Assembly: GCF_988243305.1 (NCBI RefSeq)
Contig: NZ_OZ547138.1
Reading direction: 5' to 3' (one strand)
Origin: a plasmid
DNA length: 64,000 bases
Below are positions 1,148-50,995 of the stretch, in pieces. The position numbers and the translations under genes are program-made. Position 1 is the stretch's first letter; the number at the start of each line of letters is the position of its first letter. The notes under the pieces were generated by a model that saw nothing but the letters and a program-made list of their open reading frames with translations, had not been told where the DNA came from and did no database searches.

Positions 1148-1168
1148 TATTATGGGTGGATTACATAT

Positions 1169-3122: not shown

Positions 3123-3146
3123 GTTCTCATCTCCCTTTTCTTTATG

Positions 3147-3162
3147 CTGTATGTTTATACAG
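3147..3162. promoter_or_regulatory. LexA box (SOS operator) CTGTATGTTTATACAG upstream of impC
   Basis: Matches the CTGT-N8-ACAG consensus; located 25 bp upstream of the impC start. Confidence 0.6.
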
Positions 3163-4443: not shown

Positions 4444-4455
4444 AGTATGACGGAG

Positions 4456-4485
4456 ACGGGCGGGCAACCGCCCGTTTCTTTTCCG
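4456..4485 (+). terminator. Rho-independent terminator candidate
   Basis: Hairpin ACGGGCGGG-caac-CGCCCGT followed by TTCTTTTCC. Confidence 0.5.
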
Positions 4486-4827
4486 GTAAAGGATGTCGCC
4501 GGGCTCCTCTTTTTACTGCGCCGGCTGACGCGGCGCGGCAGGAACGCTGCCTGTGGTCAGTGTCCCGCGTCCGGTGGGCACGGGACGGGCGCTTTTACCG
4601 CTCCCGGCTGGCACCGGTGACAGTGTACGCCAGCCCGTCGCCCTTTTCTGATGAACGCCCTTCAAGCCGCTTTCGCGGCATAGCCTTGCCGTCAGAAAGA
4701 CGACGGCTGCGGTATTCCACGGTCGGCCTGACCCGTTACCGGACGCGGTGAACAGCCCACAGGCAGCGGGGAACGGGCACCACAGGGGTGCCCTCCCGGT
4801 GTCCTCTGTAAGAGAAGGAGCGTTGTT

Positions 4828-5511
4828 ATGTCCCGTTTTGTCCTCGGTAACTGCATCGATGTTATGGCCCGTATTCCTGATAACGCCATTGATTTCATAC
4901 TGACTGACCCGCCGTACCTCGTCGGTTTTCGTGACCGTTTCGGGCGCACCATCGCTGGCGATAAAACCGATGAATGGCTGCAACCGGCCTGTAATGAAAT
5001 GTACCGCGTACTCAAAAAAGACGCGCTGATGGTGAGCTTCTACGGCTGGAACCGCGTCGATCGCTTTATGGCCGCCTGGAAAAATGCGGGATTCAGCGTT
5101 GTTGGTCACCTGGTCTTCACCAAAAACTACACATCGAAGGCCGCATATGTGGGCTATCGCCACGAATGCGCCTACATCCTGGCAAAAGGCCGTCCACGTC
5201 TGCCACAAAACCCGCTGCCGGACGTGCTGGGCTGGAAATATTCGGGCAATCGTCATCACCCGACGGAAAAGCCCGTTACCAGCCTGCAACCGCTGATTGA
5301 GAGCTTCACACACCCGAACGCAATTGTGCTGGACCCGTTTGCAGGCAGCGGCTCAACCTGCGTCGCTGCCCTCCAGTCCGGACGCCGGTATATCGGTATC
5401 GAGCTGCTTGAGCAGTATCACCGTGCCGGGCAGCAACGCCTTGCCGCCGTGCAACGGGCCATGCAGCAGGGGGCCGCGAATGATGACTGGTTTATGCCGG
5501 AGGCTGCGTAA
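4828..5511 (+). CDS. Orphan N6-adenine DNA methyltransferase (beta-class, DPPY motif)
   Basis: Motif LTDPPYL near the N-terminus and FAGSGST near the C-terminus; no adjacent restriction endonuclease gene. Confidence 0.8.
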   Translation: MSRFVLGNCIDVMARIPDNAIDFILTDPPYLVGFRDRFGRTIAGDKTDEWLQPACNEMYRVLKKDALMVSFYGWNRVDRFMAAWKNAGFSVVGHLVFTKNYTSKAAYVGYRHECAYILAKGRPRLPQNPLPDVLGWKYSGNRHHPTEKPVTSLQPLIESFTHPNAIVLDPFAGSGSTCVAALQSGRRYIGIELLEQYHRAGQQRLAAVQRAMQQGAANDDWFMPEAA

Positions 5512-5733
5512 ATGAACTATGCCGGACACGAAAAACTGCGCGCCGACGTGGCGGAGGTGGCCAATGCCATGTGCGACCTGCGTACAACCATGAATGAGAT
5601 GGAGCAGCGGTACAGCTTTAATGCCGACACCCTGCCGGAACGTCTGGTGCGTCAGACGCTGTTTCGCGCAAACCGCCTCCTGATGGAGGCATATACCGAA
5701 ATTCTTGAACTGGATGCGTGCTTCAAAGATTAA
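5512..5733 (+). CDS. Small hypothetical protein, translationally coupled to the methyltransferase
   Basis: Start codon overlaps the methylase stop (TAAATG); 73 aa. Confidence 0.35.
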   Translation: MNYAGHEKLRADVAEVANAMCDLRTTMNEMEQRYSFNADTLPERLVRQTLFRANRLLMEAYTEILELDACFKD

Positions 5734-5745
5734 GGAGGAGACGAA

Positions 5746-6180
5746 ATGTACGGAACATGCGAAACGCTCTGCCGTGAGCTGGCAGCAAAGTATCCGGGAA
5801 ACACGCCGCTGATGCTGCTTATCTGGTCCCCGGAAGAGATTCAGGCCCTCGCTGACGGAATGGATATTTCTCTGTCCGATCATGAAATCAGAACCGTCCT
5901 GGCGCGCCTGGAGGACATCCCGGAAGACCAGCGGACTGAATCCGGTATTTCTTCCGGTGCGGCGATGGAGATTATCAATAACGTGAGAGAAAACCGCCAG
6001 GTGACCGTCCCTGCTGAACTGCTGGCGTCCCTGATTCAGACCGCCGAACAGGCACTGTGGAAACGTGAGTGGGCCGCCCGTGATAACGGCCTCGCCGTCC
6101 CGGAATGCGTCACCCGCCGACAGGCGGTGGTTAATCAGGCCCGCGCCCTGCTGAAAAACAACACACGCGAAAACGACTGA
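5746..6180 (+). CDS. Hypothetical leading-region protein; paralog of the ORF at 7881-8303
   Basis: 144 aa; GGAG RBS; shares motif R..VTVPA..L and acidic character with 7881-8303. Confidence 0.5.
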   Translation: MYGTCETLCRELAAKYPGNTPLMLLIWSPEEIQALADGMDISLSDHEIRTVLARLEDIPEDQRTESGISSGAAMEIINNVRENRQVTVPAELLASLIQTAEQALWKREWAARDNGLAVPECVTRRQAVVNQARALLKNNTREND

Positions 6181-6224
6181 TGTTATCGCCGCCTGCGGGC
6201 GGCGATTCAGGGAGACCATGAATC

Positions 6225-6995
6225 ATGAACGAAACGCTGAATGCACTGATTTATCGCCACGCCAGCAACCTGCTGCTGGCGCAGGGCTGGCCGGAAGAGA
6301 CGGATGTTGACCAGCGTAATCCGAAGTATCCGGGCTGGATCAGCATTTACGTGCGGCTGGATGTGCCCCGGCTGGCGACGTTACTTATCAACCGTCACGG
6401 CGGCGTACTGCCGCCGCTCCTGGCCTCCGCCATTCAGAAACTGACCGGAACCGGGGCGGAACTGGTACTGTCCGGCAGTCAGTGGCAGTCGCTGCCGGTA
6501 CTTCCGGCAGACGGAACACAGGTGTTTTTCCCGTATGCCGGAGAATGGCTGACCGAAGACGAAATCAGGGCAGTTCTTGATGCAGTGCGCAATGCAGTAC
6601 GAAGCATCTGTTACCAAGTGGCAGAAGATGCCCGGCGTATCCGGGCGGCGCTGACCACCACCGGTCAGACGTTGCTGACCCGCCAGACGCGCCGCTTTCG
6701 TCTGGTTGTGAAGGAAAGCGATTACCCCTGCTGGCTTGATGAAGATGACGAAAATCTGCCCGTGGTGCTCGATGCCATTCTGAACCGTGGCGCTCGTTTT
6801 TCGTCGGTGGAAATGTATCTGGTCAGTGAGTGTGTGGAGCATATCCTGTCCAGTGGGCTGGCCTGCGATGTGCTGCGTATACCTGATGAACCGTCCCGTC
6901 GCTGGTTTGACCGGGATATTCTGCGGGAGGTGGTCCTGGAAGCCCGGACTGAAATCCGCAGCATGGCGGATGCACTGGCGAAAATCCGGAAATGA
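6225..6995 (+). CDS. Hypothetical leading-region protein
   Basis: 256-aa ORF in the same orientation as neighbours. Confidence 0.45.
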
Positions 6996-7051
6996 TGACG
7001 CTGGCGGGGAAAATCTCCGCCTTTTCCAGCCGGTCCCCGGAAAGAGCAAAA

Positions 7052-7390
7052 GGATGTCGCCGCAGGCTCCGCTTTACCCGGCCATGCGGGGCATGGCCTT
7101 GTGGGTTTTCAGTTATGTGGCCTCAGCGTCGTGTGCGGGCTGTGCCGTGCCTCCATCGTAGCCGGGCTTCTGCGGGCGGGTTGCAAGGTAAGGTGAACCG
7201 CTGCGGTCACCCGGTCCCTCCTTCCCGTCTGCCGTGATTTTCCGGTCGTTCACCCGCTCAGATTTCGCGGTCTCACCCTCCAACTCCCGTCAGCCGTGCG
7301 CGTCAGGCTGCGGCTTCCCTTGCGCCCTTGCAACCCTGCAGGTCCGGCAAAGATGGAGGCACGGCACCGCCCGGTGTCGCGGAATATGTG
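7052..7390. repeat. Structured GC-rich repeat, family A copy 1 (ssi/Frpo-like candidate single-strand promoter) upstream of klcA
   Basis: About 340 bp near-identical to 14001-14340; both end just upstream of an antirestriction gene start. Confidence 0.6.
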
Positions 7391-7408
7391 AACAACGGAG
7401 GAAATCCC

Positions 7409-7834
7409 ATGCAGTATGCGAAACCTGTCACTCTGAACGTTGAAGAGTGCGACCGTCTGTCTTTTCTGCCTTACCTGTTTGGCCTGGATTTTCTGTATGC
7501 CGAAGCGTCTGTATACGCGCTGGCGAAAAAAATGATGCCGGAATATGAAGGCGGATTCTGGCACTTCATCCGCCTGCCGGACGGTGGCGGTTACATGATG
7601 CCGGATGGCGACCGTTTTCATCTGGTCAACGGTGAAAACTGGTTTGACCGTACCGTGAGTGCTGATGCCGCAGGCATCATTTTGACTTCCCTTGTGATTA
7701 ACCGCCAGTTGTGGCTGTACCACGACAGCGGGGATGCAGGGTTGACACACCTGTACAGGATGCGCGATGCGCAGTTGTGGAGCCACATCGAATTTCACCC
7801 CGAATGCAACGCGATTTACGCGGCACTTGACTGA
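7409..7834 (+). CDS. klcA: KlcA/ArdB-family antirestriction protein
   Basis: Internal start MQYAKPVTLNVEECDRLSFLPY with GGAGG RBS gives 141 aa typical of KlcA. Confidence 0.8.
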   Translation: MQYAKPVTLNVEECDRLSFLPYLFGLDFLYAEASVYALAKKMMPEYEGGFWHFIRLPDGGGYMMPDGDRFHLVNGENWFDRTVSADAAGIILTSLVINRQLWLYHDSGDAGLTHLYRMRDAQLWSHIEFHPECNAIYAALD

Positions 7835-7880
7835 TTAACGGACGGGGCGGCAATGCCGCCCCTGTAAAGGAGACGAGAAC

Positions 7881-8303
7881 ATGTACTGTACTGTTAAAGA
7901 AATCATCCGCGATGTACTGGATACAGACGTGCCGGACAGTGAATGCGTTTTTGCCGTGGTGCTGACCCGTGGGGATGTGCGTCACATAGCCCAGGACTGG
8001 AACCTGTCAGACGATGAGCTGGAAACCGTCATGCAGCGACTGGACGATGCCTTTGAGCATGGTGCGGATGTCAGCGTTGTTCACGACGTTGTTCGTGAAC
8101 TGATGGAAGAAAAGCGCGCCAGCCGTCATGTGACAGTCCCGGCGGTGATGCTGGAAAAAGTGATGGCGCTGGCAGGCAGTGAAATGAAGCGCCTGTATGC
8201 CGTCGGGAGTGAGAACGGGGGCGACGGTGACGCATTCGTCAGGGAGGAACGCGAAGCAATGGACGTTGTGTTACAGGCGCTGGACGGGGAGACGATGTCA
8301 TGA
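7881..8303 (+). CDS. Hypothetical leading-region protein; paralog of the ORF at 5746-6180
   Basis: 140 aa; related to 5746-6180. Confidence 0.5.
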   Translation: MYCTVKEIIRDVLDTDVPDSECVFAVVLTRGDVRHIAQDWNLSDDELETVMQRLDDAFEHGADVSVVHDVVRELMEEKRASRHVTVPAVMLEKVMALAGSEMKRLYAVGSENGGDGDAFVREEREAMDVVLQALDGETMS

Positions 8304-8491
8304 ATATCAGCACAGAAACCCGCGAAATTCTGCGTAATTACAGGGCCGTGATTAATGCGCGGCGTCGTGAAATGGGGCAGAAACCGCTCACCACCGCGCA
8401 GATTGTTGATGAAATCTGCGATTTTGTGGCGAATCAGCAGGCGGTTTTCCTGGGCGGTCACTACATCCTTCAGGGCAGCAGAAACAGGTGA
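8300..8491 (+). CDS. Small hypothetical protein
   Basis: 63 aa; start overlaps the preceding stop (ATGA). Confidence 0.3.
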   Translation: MNISTETREILRNYRAVINARRREMGQKPLTTAQIVDEICDFVANQQAVFLGGHYILQGSRNR

Positions 8492-8693
8492 TACAGGGGC
8501 AGGCGGTGGAGGCCGCCTGTCAGCCCGCGCGAAAACCCCAGGCAGGCTGACGCCTGCCGGAAACGCGGGGTGCAGCGCCTGCGGCGCTGCCGGCCCGGCT
8601 TTCCGGTCAGAAGGTAGTGTATGGCTGTATGCAGGGAACAGGAGTGATATTCCGTGACACTGTCACCGTTTCTGGCTGTCTTTTATTGCGCCC

Positions 8694-9200
8694 ACTTCGG
8701 CTCCCGGCTGCCTGGCGGCATCCGGTCGTCAGGCCCGACTCCGACGGGCAGCTGCTGGCGCACCCGCCAGTCTCCGCCGAACCCGCTGGCGCGGTTTCGG
8801 GCTGCCGCTACGGTCCGATGCGTGAAAACCCGGCTTGCAGCGACCGTTCCGGTCGCGCCGCCCCTGTCGCGCCGTGACCTGCGCTCCCTGCACACCTGAC
8901 GGTGTGTGAGGAAACTGCGCCTGATGGCGCAGCAGTCCTCCCTCCTGCCGCCACTCCTGCGGCCTGTTTCCCGCTGTGGACTTTCCGGGGGGCAGACGTA
9001 ACCCCCTCCCGTTCCATCTGTCCAGGGTGAGATGCACCGGCCACAAAATTTTTAGCCATGAACCCGGCAAAAAATTTTGCGTCCGCCCCCGGACAGCTGC
9101 CCCGTGAGGCGGTAAACGGGCCCCCATCGGAAAGGTCCACTGCGGGGAGAAAACCCTGTGAAGTGGACGGCAGGAGGAGCTTTCGCTCCTCTGAAGGGGC
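8694..9200. repeat. Structured GC-rich repeat, family B copy 1 (ssi/Frpo-like) upstream of ssb
   Basis: About 500 bp homologous to 15041-15545 and, in part, 18071-18395. Confidence 0.6.
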
Positions 9201-9260
9201 ACATGAACGTCCCGTCGCCGGTATCCGGTTTATCTCACATCTTTCAGTCAGGAGGTTCTT

Positions 9261-9788
9261 ATGAGTGCACGTGGTATCAACAAGGTCATCCTCGTCGGGC
9301 GTCTGGGCAATGATCCGGAGGTCCGTTACATCCCCAACGGGGGCGCAGTGGCAAACCTGCAGGTGGCCACGTCAGAAAGCTGGCGCGACAAACAGACGGG
9401 GGAGATGCGGGAGCAGACGGAATGGCACCGCGTGGTGCTGTTCGGCAAGCTCGCGGAAGTGGCAGGTGAATATCTGCGCAAGGGCGCGCAGGTCTACATC
9501 GAGGGGCAACTCCGTACCCGTAGCTGGGAAGATAACGGTATCACCCGTTACGTCACTGAAATTCTTGTTAAGACCACGGGCACCATGCAGATGCTGGGGA
9601 GTGCACCACAGCAGAACGCTCAGGCGCAACCGAAGCCTCAGCAGTACGGCCAGCCACAGAGTGCTGACGCAACGAAAAAAGGGAGCGCGAAAACGAAAGG
9701 CCGTGGACGTAAGGCTGCGCAGCCGGAGCCTCAGCCGCAACCGCCGGAGGGTGAGGATTACTGGTTTTCAGACGATATCCCGTTCTGA
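9261..9788 (+). CDS. ssb: Plasmid single-stranded DNA-binding protein
   Basis: 175 aa, N-terminal OB-fold sequence [19 protein letters not shown], Gln/Pro-rich linker, acidic tail DDIPF. Confidence 0.95.
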
Positions 9789-9838
9789 ATGACTGACTGT
9801 GAAAACCGCCCCGTCCAGTGCGGGGCATCACCGGAGAT

Positions 9839-10078
9839 ATGAGGATGAGCGAATATTTCAGAATATTTCAGGGGCTGCCTGACGGCTCCTTTACCCGCGA
9901 ACAGGCTGAAGCCGTTGCCGCACAGTACCGGAATGTCTTTATCGAGGATGATCAGGGAACGCATTTTCGCCTGGTTGTCCGCAATAACAGTGGCCTGGTC
10001 TGGCGTACCTGGAATTTTGAGGACGGTGCCGGGTACTGGATGAACCATGTCATCCGGAATTTCGGCATTCTTAAGTAA
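9839..10078 (+). CDS. Small hypothetical protein (start uncertain: 9818 GTG, 9839 or 9845 ATG)
   Basis: ORF downstream of ssb in the same orientation. Confidence 0.35.
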
Positions 10079-10136
10079 GAGAGGTGCCGGACGCGCGAAC
10101 GTCCGGCAGGACATAAGCAATTATAAGGGGATGATT

Positions 10137-12095
10137 ATGCCTGTAACGAAGTGTGAACCAGAAACCACCCGCAAAGCAAGCCGTAAATCTGTAAAAACGC
10201 AGGAAACTGTCCTGTCTGCCCTGCTGGCGCAGACGGAGGAAGTGAGCGTGCCGCTGGCCTCGCTGATTAAATCACCGCTGAATGTGCGCACGGTGCCGTA
10301 TTCTGCGGAGTCCGTCAGCGAACTGGCGGAGTCCATTAAGGGCGTTGGCCTGTTGCAGAATCTGGTCGTGCATACCCTGCCTGGTGACCGTTACGGTGTC
10401 GCCGCAGGTGGTCGCCGACTGGCTGCACTCAACATGCTGGCAGAGCGTGGCATTATTCCGGCTGACTGGCCTGTACGCGTGAAGGTTATTCCGCAGGAGC
10501 TGGCGACTGCCGCATCAATGACTGAAAACGGTCATCGTCGGGATATGCACCCTGCCGAACAGATTGCCGGATTCCGTGCGATGGCGCAGGAAGGCAAAAC
10601 GCCTGCACAAATCGGTGATTTGCTGGGCTATTCGCCCCGCCACGTTCAGCGAATGCTGAAACTGGCAGACCTTGCGCCTGTCATCCTCGATGCGCTGGCA
10701 GAAGACCGCATCACCACAGAGCACTGTCAGGCGCTGGCGCTGGAGAACGACACCGCGCGTCAGGTGCAGGTGTTTGAAGCCGCCTGCCAGTCGGGATGGG
10801 GCGGTAAACCGGAAGTACAGACCATTCGTCGTCTGGTGACCGAAAGTGAAGTGGCGGTGGCGGGGAACAGTAAATTCCGCTTTGTGGGGGCTGATGCCTT
10901 CTCGCCAGATGAACTGCGCACTGATTTGTTCAGCGACGACGAGGGTGGCTATGTGGACTGTGTTGCGCTCGATGCCGCCCTGCTGGAAAAACTCCAGGCT
11001 GTTGCAGAGTTCCTTCGGGAAGCCGAAGGCTGGGGATGGTGCGCCGGACGCATGGAGCCTGTCGGTGAGTGCCGTGAGGATGCCGGAACATACCGCTGTC
11101 TGCCGGAGCCGGAAGCGGTGCTGACGGAGGCGGAAGAAGAACGCCTGAACGAACTGATGACGCGTTACGACGCGCTGGAAAACCAGTGTGAGGAATCCGA
11201 CCTGCTGGAAGCAGAAATGAAGCTGATTGACTGCATGGCGAAGGTCAGGGCGTGGACGCCGGAGATGCGTGCCGGAAGTGGCGTGGTGGTGTCCTGGCGT
11301 TATGGAAACGTATGTGTCCAGCGTGGTGTGCAGTTGCGCAGTGAAGATGACGCGACTGATGACGCTGACCGCACGGAACAGGTGCAGGAGAAAGCGTCAG
11401 TGGAGGAAATCAGTCTGCCGTTGCTGACGAAAATGTCTTCCGAACGCACGCTGGCAGTCCAGGCAGCACTGATGCAGCAACCGGACAAATCCCTGACACT
11501 GCTGGCATGGACGCTCTGCCTGAATGTGTTTGACAGCGGAGCGTACAGTAAACCAGCACAAATCAGCCTGGAATGTAAACATTATTCGCTGACCAGCGAT
11601 GCGCCGTCAGGGAAGGAAGGTGCCGCATTCCTGGCGCTGATGGCAGAAAAAGCCCGTCTTGCGGCCCTGTTACCGGAGGGATGGTCACGGGACATGACGA
11701 CGTTCCTGTCACTCAGTCAGGAGGTGCTGTTATCCCTGCTCAGTTTCTGCACCGCATGCAGCCTTAACGGTGTCCAGACCCGCGAGTGTGGTCGCACGTC
11801 ACGCAGTCCGCTTGACTCACTGGAGAGCGCCATCGGTTTTCACATGCGCGACTGGTGGCAGCCGACGAAAGCAAACTTCTTCGGACACCTGAAAAAGCCG
11901 CAGATTATCGCAGCCCTGAATGATGCCGGACTGTCCGGTGCCGCACGGGACGCAGAGAAGATGAAGAAAGGCGATGCCGCTGAACATGCAGAGTTCCATA
12001 TGAAAGACAACCGCTGGGTGCCTGGCTGGATGTGTTCACCACGTCCACAGACGGATGCCACTGAACGCGCCGATAACCTGGCTGATGCCGCCTGA
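10137..12095 (+). CDS. ParB-like nuclease domain protein of the leading region
   Basis: N-terminal ParB/Srx-like region (LQNLVVHTLPGDRYGVAAGGRRLAAL); about 650 aa; start ATG 10137 preferred (AAGGGG RBS). Confidence 0.7.
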   Translation: MPVTKCEPETTRKASRKSVKTQETVLSALLAQTEEVSVPLASLIKSPLNVRTVPYSAESVSELAESIKGVGLLQNLVVHTLPGDRYGVAAGGRRLAALNMLAERGIIPADWPVRVKVIPQELATAASMTENGHRRDMHPAEQIAGFRAMAQEGKTPAQIGDLLGYSPRHVQRMLKLADLAPVILDALAEDRITTEHCQALALENDTARQVQVFEAACQSGWGGKPEVQTIRRLVTESEVAVAGNSKFRFVGADAFSPDELRTDLFSDDEGGYVDCVALDAALLEKLQAVAEFLREAEGWGWCAGRMEPVGECREDAGTYRCLPEPEAVLTEAEEERLNELMTRYDALENQCEESDLLEAEMKLIDCMAKVRAWTPEMRAGSGVVVSWRYGNVCVQRGVQLRSEDDATDDADRTEQVQEKASVEEISLPLLTKMSSERTLAVQAALMQQPDKSLTLLAWTLCLNVFDSGAYSKPAQISLECKHYSLTSDAPSGKEGAAFLALMAEKARLAALLPEGWSRDMTTFLSLSQEVLLSLLSFCTACSLNGVQTRECGRTSRSPLDSLESAIGFHMRDWWQPTKANFFGHLKKPQIIAALNDAGLSGAARDAEKMKKGDAAEHAEFHMKDNRWVPGWMCSPRPQTDATERADNLADAA

Positions 12096-12146
12096 TGAAC
12101 AACCACACCGCCCCGCCGGAGACGGGGCGGCAGAGGGAGAAATACG

Positions 12147-12584
12147 ATGATGAATACCGAACTGACACTGAATGCCCTGCAGTCCATGAATGCCCAGGAA
12201 TATGAAGAAATCCGTGCTGCGGGAAGCGATATGCGCCGTAATCTCACTCACGAGGTGATGCGTGAAGTGGACGCACCGGCTAACTGGATGATGAACGGAG
12301 AGTATGGCAGCGAGTTCGGGGGCTTTTTCCCCGTCCAGGTTCGTTTCACGCCAGCCCACGAACGTTTCCACCTGGCATTATGTTCGCCGGGAGACGTCTC
12401 TCAGCTCTGGATGCTGGTTCTGGTGAATGGTGGTGGACAGCCTTTCGCCGTCGTTCAGGTGCAACATATCTTCACGCCTGTCGCGATCAGTCACACGCTG
12501 GCGCTTGCCGCGACACTGGATGCGCAGGGATACAGTGTTAACGACATCATCCATATCCTGATGGCAGAAGGAGGTCAGGCATGA
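12147..12584 (+). CDS. psiB: Plasmid SOS inhibition protein B
   Basis: 145 aa; [23 protein letters not shown]...HILMAEGGQ matches the PsiB family. Confidence 0.9.
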
Positions 12585-13300
12585 GCGCACGTTCACGGGC
12601 ACTGATCCCCCTCAGCGCAGAACAACAGGCCGCCATGCAGGCGGTGGCTGTCACAGAACAACGTCGTCGTCAGGGACGCACACTTTCAGCATGGCCTTAT
12701 GCCACCGCTTTCTTTCGCTGCCTGAATGGCAGTCGCCGGATTTCGCTGACCGATCTCCGCTTTTTTGCCCCTGCGCTGACGAAGGAGGAATTTCATGGCA
12801 ACCGTCTCCTGTGGCTGGCTGCCGTGGATAAACTGATTGAAAGTTTTGGGGAAGTCTGTGTTCTTCCCCTGCCATCCGATGCGGGGCACCGTCTGTTCCC
12901 GTCCGTGCCTTTTCGTGAAGGTGAGCGTCGTCGTCAGAAAACCACGCTGACAGAGCAGAAATACAGCCGCCAGCGGGAACGTGAGGCAGAACGACGGGAA
13001 CTGGAATACCAGACATGTTTTGCTCAGGCGCAGATTGACCTTGCGTTTCATACTCCCGCCACGGTCGGAAGCTGGTTGTCCCGCTGGTCTGGTGTTGTTG
13101 AGGAGCATGATCTGGAAACGATTTTCTGGGGGTGGTGCGGGCGTTTTCCATCACTGTCATCATTTGACCGGTTTTTCTGGCAGGAGGAACCACTCTGGCG
13201 GCTGATTTTTGAAGCCGGTGAGGCCGGTCGTGGTGCACCGGTACAGGTACGTGCACTTGAGCAGTGGATGATCCCGAACAAGCTGGAGAACGTAATATGA
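12581..13300 (+). CDS. psiA: Plasmid SOS inhibition protein A
   Basis: 239 aa immediately downstream of psiB with overlapping start/stop, the conserved psiB-psiA arrangement. Confidence 0.85.
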
Positions 13301-13893
13301 TGAAATCAGACGAAAAATACCAGGTTCCCGCGTGGATGCGACCTCTGTTGCCGTTGCTCTGCAACACCGGGGGGAACGATCCGGAAGAACTGCTGAATGA
13401 TACAGAAACCACTGCCAGTGCGAATGTTGTCCGTTATGTACTGATAGTTGCTGTGCGGTCGCAGGTTGATCTGCTGCAGCTTCTGTACAGGAAAGGGCTG
13501 TTGCGCACAGAGATACCAGGTGGCTTTTCACCGGAAGAAGCGCAGGCACTCCTGGATAATCTGGTGCGCAGCCATATCAGCAAGGCGCTGTCGGGCGAGC
13601 GAATGGCAGCCCGTGACAGAAATGCCGATCTGGCCTGGATTGGACAGCAACTGGTCGATGCCGCCTGGTTTGTCCGTGCCACACTGGAAGCGCATGGGAT
13701 GAGCGTCGGAAATGAGAGTCCCCCTGCTCCGCCGGAGACAATGCCGGACATACAGACACGGGAACTGGTGATGTTGATCAAGCGACTGGCATCATCGCTG
13801 AAAGCGGTGAAACCGGACAGTTGTGTGGTGCGTGAAGCGCAGGACTGGCTGCGCGACAGAAAACTTGTGAGCATCACGGATGTTCTCCGGTGA
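13297..13893 (+). CDS. Hypothetical leading-region protein
   Basis: ATG 13297 overlaps the psiA stop; about 198 aa. Confidence 0.45.
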   Translation: MMKSDEKYQVPAWMRPLLPLLCNTGGNDPEELLNDTETTASANVVRYVLIVAVRSQVDLLQLLYRKGLLRTEIPGGFSPEEAQALLDNLVRSHISKALSGERMAARDRNADLAWIGQQLVDAAWFVRATLEAHGMSVGNESPPAPPETMPDIQTRELVMLIKRLASSLKAVKPDSCVVREAQDWLRDRKLVSITDVLR

Positions 13894-14000
13894 ACCAGTG
13901 GAGGTATGCTTGAGGGGCAGGGACATGCCAGTCATGATCGTTTCATATCAGGGGTGGTCTGGAGGTCATGCGGTGTGCTCCCTGCTCTCGCCGGAATAAG

Positions 14001-14340
14001 GAAGTCGCCGGCGGCTCCGCTTTTACCCGGCCATGCGGGGCATGGCCTTGTGGGTTTTCAGTTATGTGGCCGCCGTGTCGTGTGCGGGCTGTGCCGTGCC
14101 TCCATCGTAGCCGGGCTTCTGCGGGCGGGATGCAAGGTAAGATGAACCGCTGCGGTCACCCGGTCCCTCCTTCCCGTCTGCCGTGATTTTCCGGTCGTTC
14201 ACCCGCTCAGATTTCGCGGTCTCACCCTCCAACTCCCGTCAGCCGTGCGCGTCGGGCTGCGGCTTTCCTTGCGCCCTTGCATCCCTGCAGGCCCGGCAAA
14301 GATGGAGGCACGGCACCGCCCGGTGTCGCAGAACATGTGA
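14001..14340. repeat. Structured GC-rich repeat, family A copy 2 (ssi/Frpo-like) upstream of ardA
   Basis: Near-identical to 7052-7390. Confidence 0.6.
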
Positions 14341-14357
14341 CTATGGAGGATTCGGGA

Positions 14358-14858
14358 ATGTCTGTTGTTGCACCTGCTGTATACGTTGGAACCTGGCACA
14401 AATACAACTGTGGAAGCATCGCCGGACGCTGGTTTGACCTGACCACGTTTGATGATGAGCGCGACTTTTTCGCCGCCTGCCGTGCTCTTCACCAGGATGA
14501 AGCCGATCCTGAACTGATGTTTCAGGATTATGAGGGATTCCCGGGGAATATGGCCTCTGAATGTCATATCAACTGGGCCTGGGTTGAAGGCTTCCGCCGG
14601 GCACGGGATGAAGGCTGCGAAGAGGCTTATCGTCTCTGGGTGGATGATACCGGTGAGACGGATTTTGACAGCTTCCGCGATGCCTGGTGGGGCGAGGCTG
14701 ACAGTGAGGAGGCTTTTGCGGTTGAGTTCGCCAGTGATACCGGCCTGCTGGCTGACGTGCCGGAGACGGTGGCGCTCTATTTTGACTATGAGGCGTATGC
14801 GCGGGATTTATTCCTGGACTCCTTCACCTTTATTGACGGTCATGTGTTCCGTCGGTGA
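14358..14858 (+). CDS. ardA: ArdA antirestriction protein (DNA mimic, anti type I R-M)
   Basis: Internal start MSVVAPAVYVGTWHKYNCGSIAGRWFDL gives 166 aa, highly acidic; about 5 kb from oriT as in IncI1. Confidence 0.9.
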   Translation: MSVVAPAVYVGTWHKYNCGSIAGRWFDLTTFDDERDFFAACRALHQDEADPELMFQDYEGFPGNMASECHINWAWVEGFRRARDEGCEEAYRLWVDDTGETDFDSFRDAWWGEADSEEAFAVEFASDTGLLADVPETVALYFDYEAYARDLFLDSFTFIDGHVFRR

Positions 14859-15040
14859 TTTACTCCCCCGCTCCGGCGGGGGTATGGCCTGCCAGGCCGC
14901 CGGAAAACCCTGGCAGGCTTACGCCTGCCTGAAATGCAGGAGGGCCGCGCCTGCGGCGCTGCCCTTCCTGCCCGTCATGGTGTGAGGCATTTTTCTGTTA
15001 TGTCGTTTCTGTTGTTCTGATTTCCGGAGGCGGGGACACC

Positions 15041-15545
15041 TTCGGCTCCCGGCTGCCTGGCGGCATCCGGTCGTCAGGCCCGACTCCGACAGGCAGCTGC
15101 TGGCGCACCCGCCAGTCTCCGCCGAACCCGCTGGCGCGGTTTCGGGCTGCCGCTACGGTCCGATGTCTGAAAAACCAGGCTTGCAGCGACCGTTCCGGTC
15201 GCGCCGCCTCTGTCGCGCCGTGACCTGCGCTCCCTGCACACCTGACGGTGTGTAAGGAAACTGCGCCTGATGGCGCAGTTGTCTGCCCTTCCGCCGCCAC
15301 CCCTGCGGCCTGTTTCCCGCTGTGGACTTTCCGGGGGCTGAAGCGGCCACAACACGTGTCAGCCGTCCAGGGGGGAGATGTACCAGCCACAAAACTTTTT
15401 GCCGCAAGCGTCAAAAACTTTTGCGTCTGCCCCCGGACAACTGCCCCGTGCCGTGGCTGTCGCTGCCCCATCGGAAAGGTCCACTGCGGGGAGAAACCCC
15501 GAAGAAGTGGACGGCAGAAGGGGCTTTCGCCCCTCCGGGGGAGCA
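15041..15545. repeat. Structured GC-rich repeat, family B copy 2 (ssi/Frpo-like)
   Basis: Homologous to 8694-9200. Confidence 0.6.
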
Positions 15546-23500: not shown

Positions 23501-23785
23501 CTCCACGACATATCTGTAGGGCTAACAGAAGACTGTCAGGTTGGCTGATTACTACACTGGAACCTGAGGTACTTTGCCTCAGGTTATGTTGACATACTCA
23601 AAAATAGATTCTTACATTATCCCGGTAACGGCGTCCTTCATCGGCCTGCCAGTTACCATCAATGGTATTGGTACCCTCGTTCTTTCTGTCTGTGATGTTA
23701 ATAAGGGCAAAATTAATCAGCATGTCTGGCAGGAATGATTCCGCGTCTGGCACAGCCAGGCACCTGATGGCATGAAATGCCGCTA

Positions 23786-23812
23786 AGCCCGCGTAATTGC
23801 GGGCTTTTTTTT
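23786..23812 (+). terminator. Strong orphan rho-independent terminator hairpin (possible small-RNA 3' end)
   Basis: AGCCCGC-gtaatt-GCGGGCT followed by eight T; no protein gene ends nearby on this strand. Confidence 0.4.
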
Positions 23813-24042
23813 GTTTGTGTTTGGCACGATCTGGCAACGGGAGGAAGCGCCAAGCACCGTTTGAGCATGGCATTAAAGCTGGTATTATGGTTTGGCGATG
23901 CCATGATTGATGCCGATACCATGCTGCGTTCTTTTGTGTGTTCATGGTATTAATATTCTATAAGTTACTGTTTCGTAAGAAAAAATACGATAAATTCGAG
24001 ATTTTTTCAGCATGGTATCGGAGACGAAGAAGGACAAGGTAC

Positions 24043-24591
24043 ATGCTGACCGATACCAAGCTGCGCAATCTCAAGCCCAGGGACAAACTCTACAAAGTGA
24101 ATGACCGGGAAGGTCTCTATGTGGCAGTGACTCCAGCCGGCTCCATCTCGTTCCGTTACAACTACTCAATCAACGGTCGGCAGGAGACCATCACCTTTGG
24201 GCGTTATGGTGTCGGTGGCATCACCCTGGCCGAAGCCCGCGAGCTGTTGGGTGACGCCAAGAAGATGGTTGCGGCGGGCAAGTCGCCGGCCAAGGAGAAA
24301 GCCCGAGACAAGGCGCGGGTGAAAGATGCAGAGACGTTCGGTGCCTGGGCGGAGAAGTGGCTGCGTGGCTACCAGATGGCCGACTCCACCCGCGATATGC
24401 GCCGCTCGGTTTATGAGCGTGAGCTGAAGCCGAAATTCAGCAATCAGAAGCTGGTGGAGATCACCCACGAAGACTTGCGGGCGCTGGCTGATGCCATTGT
24501 TGAGCGAGGCGCACCGGCCACCGCCGTTCATGTGCGTGAAATCGTGTTGCAGGTATTTCGCTGGGCCATCGAGCGTGGGCAGAAGGTCGAA
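24043..24591 (+). pseudogene. int: N-terminal fragment of a P4-like tyrosine integrase, truncated by IS26
   Basis: MLTDTKLRNLKPRDKLYKVNDREGLYVAVTPAGSISFRYNY is a typical integrase arm-binding N-terminus; the frame runs into the IS26 terminal repeat at 24592. Confidence 0.6.
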
Positions 24592-25411
24592 GGCACTGTT
24601 GCAAATAGTCGGTGGTGATAAACTTATCATCCCCTTTTGCTGATGGAGCTGCACATGAACCCATTCAAAGGCCGGCATTTTCAGCGTGACATCATTCTGT
24701 GGGCCGTACGCTGGTACTGCAAATACGGCATCAGTTACCGTGAGCTGCAGGAGATGCTGGCTGAACGCGGAGTGAATGTCGATCACTCCACGATTTACCG
24801 CTGGGTTCAGCGTTATGCGCCTGAAATGGAAAAACGGCTGCGCTGGTACTGGCGTAACCCTTCCGATCTTTGCCCGTGGCACATGGATGAAACCTACGTG
24901 AAGGTCAATGGCCGCTGGGCGTATCTGTACCGGGCCGTCGACAGCCGGGGCCGCACTGTCGATTTTTATCTCTCCTCCCGTCGTAACAGCAAAGCTGCAT
25001 ACCGGTTTCTGGGTAAAATCCTCAACAACGTGAAGAAGTGGCAGATCCCGCGATTCATCAACACGGATAAAGCGCCCGCCTATGGTCGCGCGCTTGCTCT
25101 GCTCAAACGCGAAGGCCGGTGCCCGTCTGACGTTGAACACCGACAGATTAAGTACCGGAACAACGTGATTGAATGCGATCATGGCAAACTGAAACGGATA
25201 ATCGGCGCCACGCTGGGATTTAAATCCATGAAGACGGCTTACGCCACCATCAAAGGTATTGAGGTGATGCGTGCACTACGCAAAGGCCAGGCCTCAGCAT
25301 TTTATTATGGTGATCCCCTGGGCGAAATGCGCCTGGTAAGCAGAGTTTTTGAAATGTAAGGCCTTTGAATAAGACAAAAGGCTGCCTCATCGCTAACTTT
25401 GCAACAGTGCC
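24592..25411 (+). mobile_element. IS26: IS26 (820 bp) copy 1
   Basis: 14-bp terminal inverted repeats GGCACTGTTGCAAA (24592) and TTTGCAACAGTGCC (25411); no 8-bp target duplication. Confidence 0.95.
24655..25359 (+). CDS. tnpA: IS26 transposase Tnp26
   Basis: 234 aa MNPFKGRHFQRDIILWAVRWYCKYGISYRELQEM. Confidence 0.95.
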   Translation: MNPFKGRHFQRDIILWAVRWYCKYGISYRELQEMLAERGVNVDHSTIYRWVQRYAPEMEKRLRWYWRNPSDLCPWHMDETYVKVNGRWAYLYRAVDSRGRTVDFYLSSRRNSKAAYRFLGKILNNVKKWQIPRFINTDKAPAYGRALALLKREGRCPSDVEHRQIKYRNNVIECDHGKLKRIIGATLGFKSMKTAYATIKGIEVMRALRKGQASAFYYGDPLGEMRLVSRVFEM

Positions 25412-43463: not shown

Positions 43464-44283
43464 GGCACTGTTGCAAAGTTAGCGATGAGGCAGCCTTTTG
43501 TCTTATTCAAAGGCCTTACATTTCAAAAACTCTGCTTACCAGGCGCATTTCGCCCAGGGGATCACCATAATAAAATGCTGAGGCCTGGCCTTTGCGTAGT
43601 GCACGCATCACCTCAATACCTTTGATGGTGGCGTAAGCCGTCTTCATGGATTTAAATCCCAGCGTGGCGCCGATTATCCGTTTCAGTTTGCCATGATCGC
43701 ATTCAATCACGTTGTTCCGGTACTTAATCTGTCGGTGTTCAACGTCAGACGGGCACCGGCCTTCGCGTTTGAGCAGAGCAAGCGCGCGACCATAGGCGGG
43801 CGCTTTATCCGTGTTGATGAATCGCGGGATCTGCCACTTCTTCACGTTGTTGAGGATTTTACCCAGAAACCGGTATGCAGCTTTGCTGTTACGACGGGAG
43901 GAGAGATAAAAATCGACAGTGCGGCCCCGGCTGTCGACGGCCCGGTACAGATACGCCCAGCGGCCATTGACCTTCACGTAGGTTTCATCCATGTGCCACG
44001 GGCAAAGATCGGAAGGGTTACGCCAGTACCAGCGCAGCCGTTTTTCCATTTCAGGCGCATAACGCTGAACCCAGCGGTAAATCGTGGAGTGATCGACATT
44101 CACTCCGCGTTCAGCCAGCATCTCCTGCAGCTCACGGTAACTGATGCCGTATTTGCAGTACCAGCGTACGGCCCACAGAATGATGTCACGCTGAAAATGC
44201 CGGCCTTTGAATGGGTTCATGTGCAGCTCCATCAGCAAAAGGGGATGATAAGTTTATCACCACCGACTATTTGCAACAGTGCC
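43464..44283 (-). mobile_element. IS26: IS26 (820 bp) copy 2, inverted relative to copy 1
   Basis: Terminal repeats GGCACTGTTGCAAA (43464) and TTTGCAACAGTGCC (44283); no target duplication. Confidence 0.95.
43516..44220 (-). CDS. tnpA: IS26 transposase Tnp26
   Basis: Protein identical to the copy at 24655-25359. Confidence 0.95.
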   Translation of the reverse strand: MNPFKGRHFQRDIILWAVRWYCKYGISYRELQEMLAERGVNVDHSTIYRWVQRYAPEMEKRLRWYWRNPSDLCPWHMDETYVKVNGRWAYLYRAVDSRGRTVDFYLSSRRNSKAAYRFLGKILNNVKKWQIPRFINTDKAPAYGRALALLKREGRCPSDVEHRQIKYRNNVIECDHGKLKRIIGATLGFKSMKTAYATIKGIEVMRALRKGQASAFYYGDPLGEMRLVSRVFEM

Positions 44284-47330: not shown

Positions 47331-47368
47331 CTTAGCGTAGGATTTCGCCCTCTCCCGCAAACGACCCC
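47331..47368. mobile_element. Tn5393-type 38-bp terminal inverted repeat downstream of strB
   Basis: CTTAGCGTAGGATTTCGCCCTCTCCCGCAAACGACCCC, a Tn3-family GGGG...CTAAG repeat. Confidence 0.7.
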
Positions 47369-47381
47369 AGGAGGAAAGGGC

Positions 47382-47606
47382 ATGAAGAAGCCGAACCAAG
47401 ACGACGAGCCGTTTTTCATCACCGAGGAGATTGCGGCCGAAATGATCGCCGGCGGCTATGAGTTCGAGCTGCCGCCCATTCCTTGCACCATCCGCCTACG
47501 CGACGTGCTGGAGCGCATGACCGATGCTGAGCTAGCATTGCAGCCGGGCGAGATCGCCGACCAGGAGCGTGAACGCTGCCGGCGCAAGCCGTGTTCAACC
47601 TCATGA
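47382..47606 (+). CDS. Small hypothetical ORF just outside the Tn5393 IR
   Basis: AGGAGG RBS 6 nt upstream of ATG; 74 aa; function unknown. Confidence 0.3.
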   Translation: MKKPNQDDEPFFITEEIAAEMIAGGYEFELPPIPCTIRLRDVLERMTDAELALQPGEIADQERERCRRKPCSTS

Positions 47607-47705
47607 TCTGGTCATGGTATTTTTCATGGCACTGAGCCTGATAGTTCTTGCAAATTGTTGTCACTAAAGGGTTTTGTGTGCTTGTTTACAATCGAGTGGG
47701 AGTGA
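47606..47705. repeat. ISCR2-associated end-like sequence, copy M (motifs CATGGTATTTTTCATGG and CTTGTTTACAATCGAGTGGGA)
   Basis: Shares two motifs at identical 51-nt spacing with 50893-50995. Confidence 0.4.
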
Positions 47706-47816
47706 CGGGCACTGGCTGGCAATGTCTAGCAACGGCAGGCATTTCGGCTGAGGGTAAAAGAACTTTCCGCTAAGCGATAGACTGTATGTAAACACAGTAT
47801 TGCAAGGACGCGGAAC

Positions 47817-49310
47817 ATGCCTCATGTGGCGGCCAGGACGGCCAGCCGGGATCGGGATACTGGTCGTTACCAGAGCCACCGACCCGAGCAAACCCTTCTC
47901 TATCAGATCGTTGACGAGTATTACCCGGCATTCGCTGCGCTTATGGCAGAGCAGGGAAAGGAATTGCCGGGCTATGTGCAACGGGAATTTGAAGAATTTC
48001 TCCAATGCGGGCGGCTGGAGCATGGCTTTCTACGGGTTCGCTGCGAGTCTTGCCACGCCGAGCACCTGGTCGCTTTCAGCTGTAAGCGTCGCGGTTTCTG
48101 CCCGAGCTGTGGGGCGCGGCGGATGGCCGAAAGTGCCGCCTTGCTGGTTGATGAAGTACTGCCTGAACAACCCATGCGTCAGTGGGTGTTGAGCTTCCCG
48201 TTTCAGCTGCGTTTCCTGTTTGCCAGCCGGCCCGAGATCATGGGGTGGGTGCTGGGCATCGTTTACCGCGTCATTGCCACGCACCTGGTCAAGAAAGCGG
48301 GCCATACCCACCAAGTGGCCAAGACGGGCGCGGTCACCCTGATCCAGCGTTTTGGATCGGCGCTCAATCTGAATGTTCACTTCCACATGCTGTTTCTCGA
48401 CGGTGTGTATGTCGAGCAATCCCACGGCTCAGCGCGTTTCCGCTGGGTCAAGGCGCCGACCAGCCCAGAGCTCACCCAGCTGACGCACACCATCGCCCAC
48501 CGGGTGGGTCGCTATCTGGAACGGCAAGGCCTGCTGGAACGGGATGTCGAAAACAGCTATCTGGCCTCGGATGCGGTGGATGACGACCCGATGACACCCC
48601 TGCTGGGGCACTCGATCACTTACCGTATCGCTGTCGGTTCACAGGCGGGGCGAAAGGTGTTCACTTTGCAAACTCTGCCGACCAGTGGTGATCCGTTCGG
48701 TGACGGGATTGGCAAGGTAGCCGGGTCCAGCCTGCACGCCGGCGTGGCGGCCAGGGCCGATGAACGCAAGAAGCTCGAACGGCTGTGCCGGTACATCAGC
48801 CGCCCGGCGGTATCCGAGAAGCGGCTGTCGTTAACACGAGGCGGCAACGTGCGCTACCAGCTCAAGACGCCGTACCGGGACGGCACCACGCACGTCATTT
48901 TCGAACCATTGGATTTCATTGCAAGGCTGGCCGCCCTGGTACCGAAGCCCAGAGTCAACCTAACCCGCTTCCACGGGGTGTTCGCACCCAACAGTCGGCA
49001 CCGGGCGTTGGTCACGCCGGCAAAACGGGGCAGGGGCAACAAGGTCAGGGTGGCTGATGAACCGGCAACACCAGCACAACGGCGAGCGTCGATGACATGG
49101 GCGCAACGGCTCAAGCGTGTTTTCAATATCGACATCGAGACCTGCAGCGGCTGCGGCGGCGCCATGAAAGTCATCGCCTGCATTGAAGACCCTATAGTGA
49201 TCAAGCAGATCCTTGATCACCTGAAGCACAAAGCCGAAACCAGCGGGACCAGGGCGTTACCCGAAAGCCGGGCGCCACCGGCTGAGCTGCTCCTGGGTCT
49301 GTTTGACTGA
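47817..49310 (+). CDS. rcr2: ISCR2 rolling-circle (IS91-family) transposase
   Basis: 497 aa with Cys-rich zinc-binding N-terminus (CESCHAEHLVAFSCKRRGFCPSCGARRM) and HUH-type core; classic sul2 neighbour. Confidence 0.9.
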   Translation: MPHVAARTASRDRDTGRYQSHRPEQTLLYQIVDEYYPAFAALMAEQGKELPGYVQREFEEFLQCGRLEHGFLRVRCESCHAEHLVAFSCKRRGFCPSCGARRMAESAALLVDEVLPEQPMRQWVLSFPFQLRFLFASRPEIMGWVLGIVYRVIATHLVKKAGHTHQVAKTGAVTLIQRFGSALNLNVHFHMLFLDGVYVEQSHGSARFRWVKAPTSPELTQLTHTIAHRVGRYLERQGLLERDVENSYLASDAVDDDPMTPLLGHSITYRIAVGSQAGRKVFTLQTLPTSGDPFGDGIGKVAGSSLHAGVAARADERKKLERLCRYISRPAVSEKRLSLTRGGNVRYQLKTPYRDGTTHVIFEPLDFIARLAALVPKPRVNLTRFHGVFAPNSRHRALVTPAKRGRGNKVRVADEPATPAQRRASMTWAQRLKRVFNIDIETCSGCGGAMKVIACIEDPIVIKQILDHLKHKAETSGTRALPESRAPPAELLLGLFD

Positions 49311-49485
49311 CGAGCCTGAAGGCCAACGATACCAATCAAAATGCTGCGTTCACAGCGCCGCGGCAGGGATCCGCCGTGCTGGTTGTCGGAAAAGGAGCCG
49401 CTAGTGGGAAAGAGGAGGGTAAATTTTCAGCGTTGCTGGCTCCCCGTCAGCCGGATTGGGTTGCATCGCAGGGGTGTCGAAAGAG

Positions 49486-49788
49486 TCAACTGCGGTCCAA
49501 AGCTGTTGGACTTGGGTGAAAAGGGCGTTTATTCTTCCTATACGTTGTCGGCAGCGGGCCAAAAAGGAATACGTCCATGCCCATCGAGGTGAAACCGGCT
49601 GTGAGCGCGGGTTCAAGCATATAGCCCGACAGGCGCGTATCCTTGCCGATCACGACACGATGGCGGTGGTCACCGCGACGAAAGACACGGCCAGCCGCCA
49701 TGCCGACGCGCAAGGCGGTTTCCGCCGTCATCGCGCCTTCGTTGGCTTTGCCACGAATACCGTCTGTGCCGAAATATTTGCGCACCAT
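49486..49788 (-). pseudogene. glmM: Truncated phosphoglucosamine mutase gene (glmM remnant)
   Basis: N-terminus [18 protein letters not shown] of GlmM followed by out-of-context sequence; lies between ISCR2 and sul2. Confidence 0.7.
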
Positions 49789-49874
49789 AAGGTCGATTAT
49801 CCTGTCGTCGGGTCGCCCTCAAAGGGGACATGCCTGCTGAACCGCGAATATAGAGAAATATCCCGAATGTGCAG

Positions 49875-50690
49875 TTAACGAATTCTTGCGGTTTCTTTCA
49901 GCGCCGCCAATACCGCCAGCCCGTCGCGCAAGGGGCGCGGCTCGTGTGTGCGGATGAAGTCAGCTCCACCTGCGGCGGCGGCAAGCTCTGCAGCGAGTGT
50001 CGCGGCCCCGACATCCCCCGGACCACGGCCTGTGAGCGCGCGCAGAAAGGATTTGCGCGAAACAGACAGAAGCACCGGCAAATCGAAGCGCAGCCGCAAT
50101 TCATCGAACCGCGCCAGCACCGAGAGCGAGGTTTCGGGAGCAGCCCCCAGAAAAAACCCCATGCCGGGATCAAGGACAAGGCGGTTGCGTTTGATACCGG
50201 CACCCGTCAGCGCCGCGATGCGCGCGTCAAAGAACGCCGCAATGTGATCCATGATGTCGCCAGCGGGTGCCTCGCGCCGATCTGCCTGCCCGTCTTGCAC
50301 CGAATGCATAACGACGAGTTTGGCAGATGATTTCGCCAATTGCGGATAGAACGCAGCGTCTGGAAAACCGCGAATATCATTGAGATAGGCCACACCACGC
50401 GACAAGGCATAGGCTTGCGTCGCGGGTTGATAACTGTCGAGCGAGACGGGAATGCCATCTGCCTTGAGCGCGTCCAGCACCGGCGCGATACGCGCGATTT
50501 CTGTGTCGGACGAAACAGGCGCGGCGTCGGGATTGCTGGATGCCGGACCGAGGTCGATCACATCTGCCCCCTCGGCCATCAGCTTACGCGCCTGCGCAAT
50601 GGCTGCGTCTGGCGCCAGATACCGGCCTCCATCGGAGAAACTGTCCGAGGTTATGTTGACGATGCCGAAAATGATGAGCGATTTATTCAT
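49875..50690 (-). CDS. sul2: Sulfonamide-resistant dihydropteroate synthase Sul2
   Basis: 271 aa MNKSLIIFGIVNITSDSFSDGGRY. Confidence 0.95.
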   Translation of the reverse strand: MNKSLIIFGIVNITSDSFSDGGRYLAPDAAIAQARKLMAEGADVIDLGPASSNPDAAPVSSDTEIARIAPVLDALKADGIPVSLDSYQPATQAYALSRGVAYLNDIRGFPDAAFYPQLAKSSAKLVVMHSVQDGQADRREAPAGDIMDHIAAFFDARIAALTGAGIKRNRLVLDPGMGFFLGAAPETSLSVLARFDELRLRFDLPVLLSVSRKSFLRALTGRGPGDVGAATLAAELAAAAGGADFIRTHEPRPLRDGLAVLAALKETARIR

Positions 50691-50892
50691 GGGGGCTTCT
50701 ATAATAATAATAATCGAGCATGAGTCTCATACGGATGCTCGGGTCGAAAGGGAATCCCCAGGCGAGTAACCTGTTTGCGGTGATCCATTAGCTGCAGGAG
50801 CAGAATAGCATACATCTGGAAGCAAAGCCAGGAAAGCGGCCTATGGAGCTGTGCGGCAGCGCTCAGTAGGCAATTTTTCAAAATATTGTTAA

Positions 50893-50995
50893 GCCTTTTC
50901 TGAGCATGGTATTTTTCATGGTATTACCAATTAGCAGGAAAATAAGCCATTGAATATAAAAGATAAAAATGTCTTGTTTACAATAGAGTGGGATC
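50893..50995. repeat. ISCR2-associated end-like sequence, copy R, beyond sul2
   Basis: CATGGTATTTTTCATGG ...51 nt... CTTGTTTACAATAGAGTGGGA. Confidence 0.4.

Follow-up and report, generated by a model that had tools for sequence, protein, structure and literature searches.

GIsul2, on which Nigro and Hall reportedly wrote in 2011, carries in its intact records an integrase gene (int) followed by alpA, repA, repC, trbJKL, a toxin gene, the ars operon, resG, ISCR2 and sul2. Harmer et al. (2017), whose work is cited in PMC9376610 and PMC5704250, and Zhang et al. (2022; PMC9376610) dealt with the element. The experiments in PMC9376610 found Int to be both required and sufficient for GIsul2 integration, and a mini-donor with only int and attL integrated into attB. 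The same paper defines the att sites as 19 bp with the core GAGTGGGA, describes attLR as a site and documents secondary plasmid sites for GIsul2, while arms are nowhere mentioned. As far as the portion of this literature cited in PMC5704250 goes, the ARI-B islands of IncC plasmids have been proposed to be derived from GIsul2 (Harmer et al., 2017), with a pattern in which GIsul2 seeds an island that is then eroded and expanded until an int stub and a CR2-sul2 end are left.

Two groups of related integrases are informative about how such elements recombine. The ε15 cluster of the IntSXT subgroup targets guaA (PMC8138268), and we assign the GIsul2 Int to this guaA-targeting cluster of the IntSXT/DUF4102 subgroup, given that it is 55% identical to the Int of phage SPN1S (54–55% over the full length for ε15-like phages) and 30% identical to P4 Int. 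SPN1S and the related phage TL-2011b have a core, ATTGAGTGGGAATGA, identical to that of GIsul2 and arm sites at the same distances as those proposed here for GIsul2, but they are phages rather than resistance islands, their repeat is GACGGTAT, and they have fewer int-proximal sites. The P4 integrase has the same DUF4102 arm-binding, central and catalytic domains, and its attP has a tandem arm pair 65–80 bp from the core plus int-proximal repeats; however, its arm motif is GGGGGCAT instead of CATGGTAT, and it targets a tRNA gene, not guaA (PMC8138268).

Here, we analysed a window of 64,000 nucleotides of a plasmid (NZ_OZ547138.1), in which a multiresistance island begins with a truncated integrase gene preceded by short repeats. 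Both ends of the island are 100% identical to intact GIsul2 (15.46 kb), and the pattern resembles that of the ARI-B islands as reported in the citing source, which differ in having an IncC rather than an IncI-complex backbone and another integration site. Close relatives also include the IncI plasmids pHUSEC41-1 and pHUSEC411like, which have a complete GIsul2 at the same backbone site with identical attL and attR junctions; in the window, mph(A), a class 1 integron, tet(A), strAB and two copies of IS26 stand in place of the interior. Neither the element nor the way in which it evolved is new; what is modestly new, and well supported by the comparisons below, is a set of predicted arm-type sites, with coordinates, for integrases of the GIsul2/ε15 cluster. 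We hold with high confidence that the left side of the island is a GIsul2 end that decayed through IS26 and that its repeats are most likely putative arm-type sites of Int. A search for arm-type sites in the accessible literature, to which Harmer et al. (2017) did not belong, returned no description of them. The analysis fixes the exact boundaries of this 27-kb multiresistance island of a conjugative IncI plasmid, as well as its history of growth on a GIsul2 scaffold, and it supplies testable arm coordinates for a family of integrases by which sul2 and further resistance genes are spread among Proteobacteria. Arm sites would further help to define minimal att sites and to predict which decayed islands are movable by an integrase supplied in trans.

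Ends and att sites of the GIsul2 remnant

We used the 15,463-bp GIsul2 of pHUSEC411like as reference in a local BLAST against the window, which returned only two pieces, each at 100% identity (Table 1), and we established the identity of the left end to Acinetobacter baumannii pAB3 and other records by megablast against plasmids. The left remnant (860 bp) was 100% identical to GIsul2 in both reference loci, L001 and L002, and the match to GIsul2 of pAB3 and pHUSEC411like begins at 23732. The right remnant holds the 3′ end of resG, a small orf, attLR, ISCR2, sul2 and attR, and therein the CR2-sul2 unit of ISCR2 (rcr2), truncated glmM and sul2. By sequence identity, the element is therefore a remnant of GIsul2, and the resistance island spans 23732–50993, about 27.3 kb. 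A preliminary description had the island start at 23880, which is 148 bp too far right, as attL lies at 23732; its expectations that GIsul2 would align at both ends, with a partner end present, and that sul2 and ISCR2 lie at the far end were borne out.

The diagnostic features of GIsul2 found in the window are the identity of int over codons 1–183, the GAGTGGGA core at attR and attLR, and a hybrid at attL. The remainder of the backbone, namely the 3′ part of int, alpA, repA, repC, trbJ-K-L, the toxin gene, arsRHCB and most of resG, is missing: GIsul2 positions 861–11836 occur neither in the window nor in the other 62 kb of NZ_CP145695.1, the matching plasmid.

Table 1. Positions of the features of the GIsul2-derived island in the window, with the evidence for each.
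Feature	Position	Strand	Description and evidence
attL junction	23727..23738	+	TGGCAGGA/ATGA; plasmid half of secondary attB joined to GIsul2 left end
GIsul2 left-end remnant	23732..24591	+	GIsul2 1–860: P′ arm, int regulatory region, int codons 1–183
Tandem TCTGGCAC/AGGCAC block	23746..23765	+	Next to core; columns at least 95% conserved in 80-sequence alignment
Intrinsic terminator, hairpin and T-run	23785..23814	+	Terminator scan; hairpin conserved in related loci
Second conserved tandem block, TTTGGCAC-GA-TCTGGCAA	23818..23837	+	Conserved alignment columns
Putative arm site S1, CATGGCAT	23866..23873	+	+139 from core; column identity 0.93 (80 loci)
Putative arm site S2, CATGGCAT inverted	23898..23905	-	+171 from core; column identity 0.98
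Putative arm site S3, CATGGTAT inverted	23916..23923	-	+189; column identity 0.99; exact in 76/80 loci
Putative arm site S4, CATGGTAT	23943..23950	+	+216; column identity 0.995; exact in 77/80 loci
Putative arm site S5, CATGGTAT	24011..24018	+	+284; column identity 0.998; exact in 79/80 loci
Truncated int	24043..24618	+	Codons 1–183 (to 24591), 8 IS26 codons and stop
IS26 copy 1	24592..25411	+	820 bp; truncates int; 14-bp IRs GGCACTGTTGCAAA / TTTGCAACAGTGCC
IS26 copy 2	43464..44283	-	Inverted orientation, inside island
GIsul2 right-end remnant	47367..50993	+	GIsul2 11837–15463; 100% over 3,627 bp
Putative P-arm pair left of attLR, CATGGTAT-TTTT-CATGGCAC	47613..47632	+	-81/-69 from attLR core
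attLR core, GAGTGGGA	47694..47701	+	Internal att site upstream of rcr2
rcr2 (ISCR2)	47817-49310		Feature table; 100% identical region
sul2	49878-50690	-	Feature table; far end of island
Putative P-arm pair at attR, CATGGTAT-TTTT-CATGGTAT	50905..50924	+	12-bp period; -81/-69 from core
attR core, GAGTGGGA	50986..50993	+	GIsul2 right end; followed by plasmid sequence TCTGGGAATTC

The backbone, which includes genes for a MOBP relaxase and a TolA-C-like protein as well as trbC, is that of a conjugative plasmid of the IncI complex, and the island sits between the nikB/tolA-like genes and trbC. The flanks are accordingly IncI backbone rather than the 3′ end of guaA, the primary site, and no guaA fragment was found in the island flanks, because GIsul2 inserted at a secondary site of the plasmid. 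In L004, the unoccupied site has the sequence TGGCAGGA/TCTGGGAATTC (TCTGGG right of the junction), and the four att sequences compared are CATGTCTGGCAGGA/TCTGGGAATTC for attB′, ...TGGCAGGA/ATGATTCCGCG for attL, TTGTTTACAATAGAGTGGGA/TCTGGGAATTC for attR and TTGTTTACAATCGAGTGGGA/GTGACGG for attLR. Given that the plasmid target shares only GGA with the core, it is a secondary site with little likeness to the guaA target, which also explains why attL has the hybrid TGGCAGGA; the comparison places the crossover within the shared GGA.

Three smaller observations concern this junction. The core region at 23732–23742, GGAAT-G-ATTCC, is perfectly dyad-symmetric about the TGA that takes the place of the guaA stop codon; this symmetry may indicate where the core-type binding sites and the overlap region lie. 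A 'hypothetical protein' annotated in matching records (23598–23945, minus strand) spans the attL junction and is for that reason probably spurious. On the plus strand, a 54-codon ORF (23574–23738) has its stop codon supplied by the GIsul2 end.

Truncation by IS26 and history of the island

The int start codon lies at 24043, and the 549 bases from there to 24591 make exactly 183 codons, which match, with 100% nucleotide identity, the 5′ part of int (400 codons) in the GIsul2 copies of pAB3 and pHUSEC411like; the 217 codons of the 3′ part are missing from this copy. The 191-aa product of the stub retains the arm-binding and central domains, with Pfam matches to Arm-DNA-bind_3 (DUF4102, PF13356; aa 2–88, E 2.7e-20) and Phage_int_M (aa 99–180), and the N-terminus of Int gave matches to two arm-binding domains of known structure, 3ju0 and 3jtz (E about 4e-12). 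In full-length Int, the arm-binding (aa 2–88) and central (aa 99–190) domains are followed by a catalytic Phage_integrase domain (PF00589, aa 203–375), which is absent here because GIsul2-encoded sequence ends at aa 183. The preliminary description of 183 integrase codons cut by IS26 was thus accurate. Its term 'P4-like' suits the domain architecture and the attP layout but not the relationship, since the 30% identity to P4 Int leaves this Int in the ε15 cluster and outside the P4 cluster proper, whose members are close to P4 Int and target tRNA genes. Origin from a P4-type phage remnant was rejected on the same comparison (30% to P4 Int, 55% to SPN1S Int).

IS26 copy 1, which truncates int, lacks an 8-bp target duplication (flanks AGGTCGAA and GGATTGAA), as does copy 2 (flanks GAAAAGGT and AGCTGAAA), which fits IS26-mediated deletion or cointegrate formation and not simple insertion. 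The junction of int codon 183 with IS26 was found in only 3 PLSDB records, and int stubs cut elsewhere are very common, with 2,616 plasmids matching part of the region. Between the two stubs lie 22,775 bp of inserted DNA (24592–47366) made up of IS26-associated resistance modules: IS26, mph(A)-mrx-mphR, IS6100, chrA and a class 1 integron with dfrA17-aadA5 and sul1, together with a TnAs1-family transposase gene, tet(A), the inverted IS26, a fragment of a chemotaxis-receptor gene and strAB. The fragment, a 290-codon ORF (44279–45151) that adjoins the second IS26 and contains the signalling domain of methyl-accepting chemotaxis proteins (E 3e-44), is an unusual passenger for a resistance island.

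The E. coli PMV-1 plasmid pHUSEC411like carries a complete 15,463-bp GIsul2 at the same position with identical junctions, and the same site is empty in p_STEC1588_1 (IncI). Given that both the complete element and the empty site are known, we infer that the 27-kb island is a GIsul2 that decayed in place, having lost 10,976 bp and kept 4,487 of its 15,463 bp. Inversion or translocation of the missing GIsul2 DNA was considered and rejected: the 3′ half of int and the other missing parts were not found elsewhere in the matching plasmid, which favours loss. Seeding by GIsul2 followed by IS26 remodelling, as proposed in the preliminary description, is therefore supported as the simplest history by the 100% identical ends, the shared site in pHUSEC411like and the empty site.

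This history would need amending if the interior and right part of the island (strAB, orf, ISCR2 and sul2) had been imported from another GIsul2 derivative of the kind found in Acinetobacter plasmids. In that case, the two GIsul2 ends would not go back to a single island decaying in place. We consider such an import, whether through homologous or IS26-mediated recombination or through an Int-mediated insertion of CR2-sul2, rather unlikely. The junction between strB and resG (47366/47367) is identical in 73 PLSDB plasmids, and the matches listed are Acinetobacter plasmids; the junction of attR with the backbone occurs in 72 PLSDB plasmids, against only 8 for the junction of attL with int (at least 77% query cover), and Int is able to mobilise CR2-sul2 by itself (PMC9376610). 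However, the outer junctions are base for base those of GIsul2 in pHUSEC411like and agree with the empty site, which indicates that the ends, at least, come from one integration event, and an exchange of the interior would modify rather than replace a history of seeding and remodelling. Given that the strB/resG junction is common to 73 plasmids, the interior may partly derive from recombination and not from stepwise decay. The junction downstream of strB also hints at a module common to IncI and Acinetobacter plasmids.

Repeats in the att arms

The 160 bp before the int start codon contain three exact copies of CATGGTAT, at 23916 (-), 23943 (+) and 24011 (+), the last of which stands 25 bp before the ATG, and two CATGGCAT variants at 23866 (+) and 23898 (-) complete an int-proximal set of five, S1–S5. 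The several repeats noted in the preliminary description were real, and the int-proximal set as a whole comprises three exact copies and two variants. In the whole window, CATGGTAT occurs seven times, against 1.6 expected, a count that was reached in none of 100 shuffles. The att arms account for six of these seven: the three upstream of int, two at attR (50905 and 50917) and one at attLR (47613). With the variants included, the P arm has two copies and the P′ arm five, three direct and two inverted. The seventh exact copy, at 63608–63615, is outside any att region and probably occurs there by chance.

We scanned species-representative genomes for related integrases and obtained 80 loci (L005–L084) whose integrases are 88–100% identical and which span alpha-, beta- and gamma-proteobacteria. 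Such identity across diverse proteobacteria indicates wide horizontal spread of the integration module. The 79 upstream regions that were aligned are, in the median, 61% identical to the window; within this alignment, the columns of S1–S5 have identities of 0.93–1.0, compared to 0.65 for the other 179 intergenic columns, and of 10,000 random sets of five 8-column windows, none was as conserved. Both the motif sequence and its position are hence kept among relatives while the flanking DNA diverges, as would be expected of arm sites. The int-distal side behaves similarly: in a gap-free alignment of attLR and attR, CATGGTATTTTTCATGG and the core CTTGTTTACAAT-N-GAGTGGGA are kept, and the spacer of about 50 bp between them has diverged.

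The register relative to the core is also found in more distant elements. Two E. coli chromosomal guaA islands, L085 (int 77% identical at the nucleotide level) and L086 (73%), keep the -81/-69 register of the P-arm pair seen at attR and attLR, although the spacers have diverged; the motif is found at -81 in L085 and at -69 in L086, in which the -69 copy is the only exact one. One of these islands has int-proximal sites at +140, +172, +191, +218 and +287, the second at +190, +217 and +285. A search for far-end att sites within the 10-kb flanks of the 80 related loci gave a clear result only in the Acetobacter locus L082, which has the same tandem pair with its 12-bp period upstream of a GAGTGGGA core, and an unclear one in L019.

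In phage SPN1S (ε15-like), which has the core ATTGAGTGGGAATGA and a different repeat, the copies of GACGGTAT at -82, -70, +140 and +169 (inverted) correspond in place and direction to the P-arm pair, S1 and S2 of GIsul2, and TL-2011b has the same int-proximal arm as SPN1S. The comparison of SPN1S with GIsul2 looks like co-variation of motif and integrase. In these ε15-like attP regions, GACGGTAT-type repeats are spaced from a GAGTGGGAATGA core as the CATGGTAT sites of GIsul2 are from theirs, at positions 1195–1473 of the SPN1S locus (L087) and 115–172 of the TL-2011b locus (L088). The GenBank record of P4 annotates as 'attP arm sequence repeat' a tandem pair with a 12-bp period about 77 and 65 bp before the core, and, read in the orientation of int, P4 has int-proximal copies as well, one of them inverted at the start of int. 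Since the annotated P4 repeats share this design, the GIsul2 layout is classical for this class of integrases. With conservation, register and the layouts of P4 and SPN1S in agreement, the CATGG(T/C)AT repeats are very probably arm-type sites of Int, and the resemblance to such sites pointed out in the preliminary description has gained strong support.

Predicted function of the repeats and other conserved elements

Neither conservation nor register can name the protein that binds the repeats, and this could instead be an AlpA-family excisionase encoded beside int or a host architectural or regulatory factor of int transcription. An AlpA-family gene does come after int in intact GIsul2, and the position of S4 and S5 immediately before int would suit a transcriptional regulator. 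On the other hand, copies of the motif flank the core on either side and point in both directions, with a tandem int-distal pair, which is the layout annotated for the arm repeats of P4; the motif changes along with the integrase in SPN1S, Int has a dedicated arm-binding domain, and a host factor common to alpha-, beta- and gamma-proteobacteria is unlikely, so that we regard another binding protein as improbable. A motif length of only 8 bp and the isolated copy at 63608 might suggest that the repeats arose by chance in intergenic DNA rich in AT, but this reading is effectively refuted by the failure of all 100 shuffles to reach seven copies and of all 10,000 random column sets to match the conservation, and by the register to the core kept in diverged elements.

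The locus is best explained by the following sequence of events. GIsul2 entered a secondary, non-guaA plasmid site through site-specific recombination by its tyrosine recombinase. Through the later activity of IS26, the remainder of int was lost along with about 11 kb of the island, and resistance modules of about 23 kb in total were acquired, while the outer ends with attLR, ISCR2, sul2 and attR stayed in place. CATGG(T/C)AT would be bound by the N-terminal Arm-DNA-bind_3 domain of Int, which, in the excised circle, would bridge the arm sites to the core in a recombination complex. Autoregulation of int through S4 and S5, which directly precede its ATG, is an additional possibility. We consider this role here because the Int of P4 acts as a repressor of its own expression; it is nevertheless speculative, given that the int promoter could not be placed convincingly: a scan for the sigma-70 consensus gave only a weak TTGAGC-16-TATTAT (23861–23888), which is not conserved in relatives. 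The int-distal side of the CR2-sul2 circle is without a CATGGTAT-like site, and both this circle and the mini-donor with int and attL recombine with one arm each, which indicates that neither arm is strictly essential there.

Lacking the catalytic domain of Int, the island is immobile by itself. Given that all att sites and arms are intact, full-length Int supplied in trans could in principle excise CR2-sul2 or the whole island, and mobilisation of this kind is conceivable; the predicted products of excision are a circle junction TTGTTTACAATAGAGTGGGAATGATTCCGCG and a repaired site CATGTCTGGCAGGATCTGGGAATTC. We offer more tentatively, as a nearly balanced possibility that we do not quite favour, the wider proposal that the family of guaA-targeting integrases as a whole recognises CATGG(T/C)AT as an undescribed arm motif, in an attP of fixed layout (the -81/-69 pair and five int-proximal sites), that a full-length GIsul2-type integrase in the same cell could excise CR2-sul2 or the 27-kb island, and that the 191-aa stub might modulate this.

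Other elements of the left end are conserved besides the repeats. Two (T)CTGGCA(C/A) blocks (23746–23765 and 23818–23837) lie between the core and S1 and are kept across the 79 related loci. TCTGGCA(A/C) is not enriched in the window (seven copies against 5.5 expected), so that it is the conservation that gives these blocks their significance. They may be sites for a second protein such as an excisionase, and the block at 23746–23765 is a possible excisionase or core-proximal binding site. Once the island has integrated, the terminator between the two blocks presumably takes over from the target gene's own terminator.
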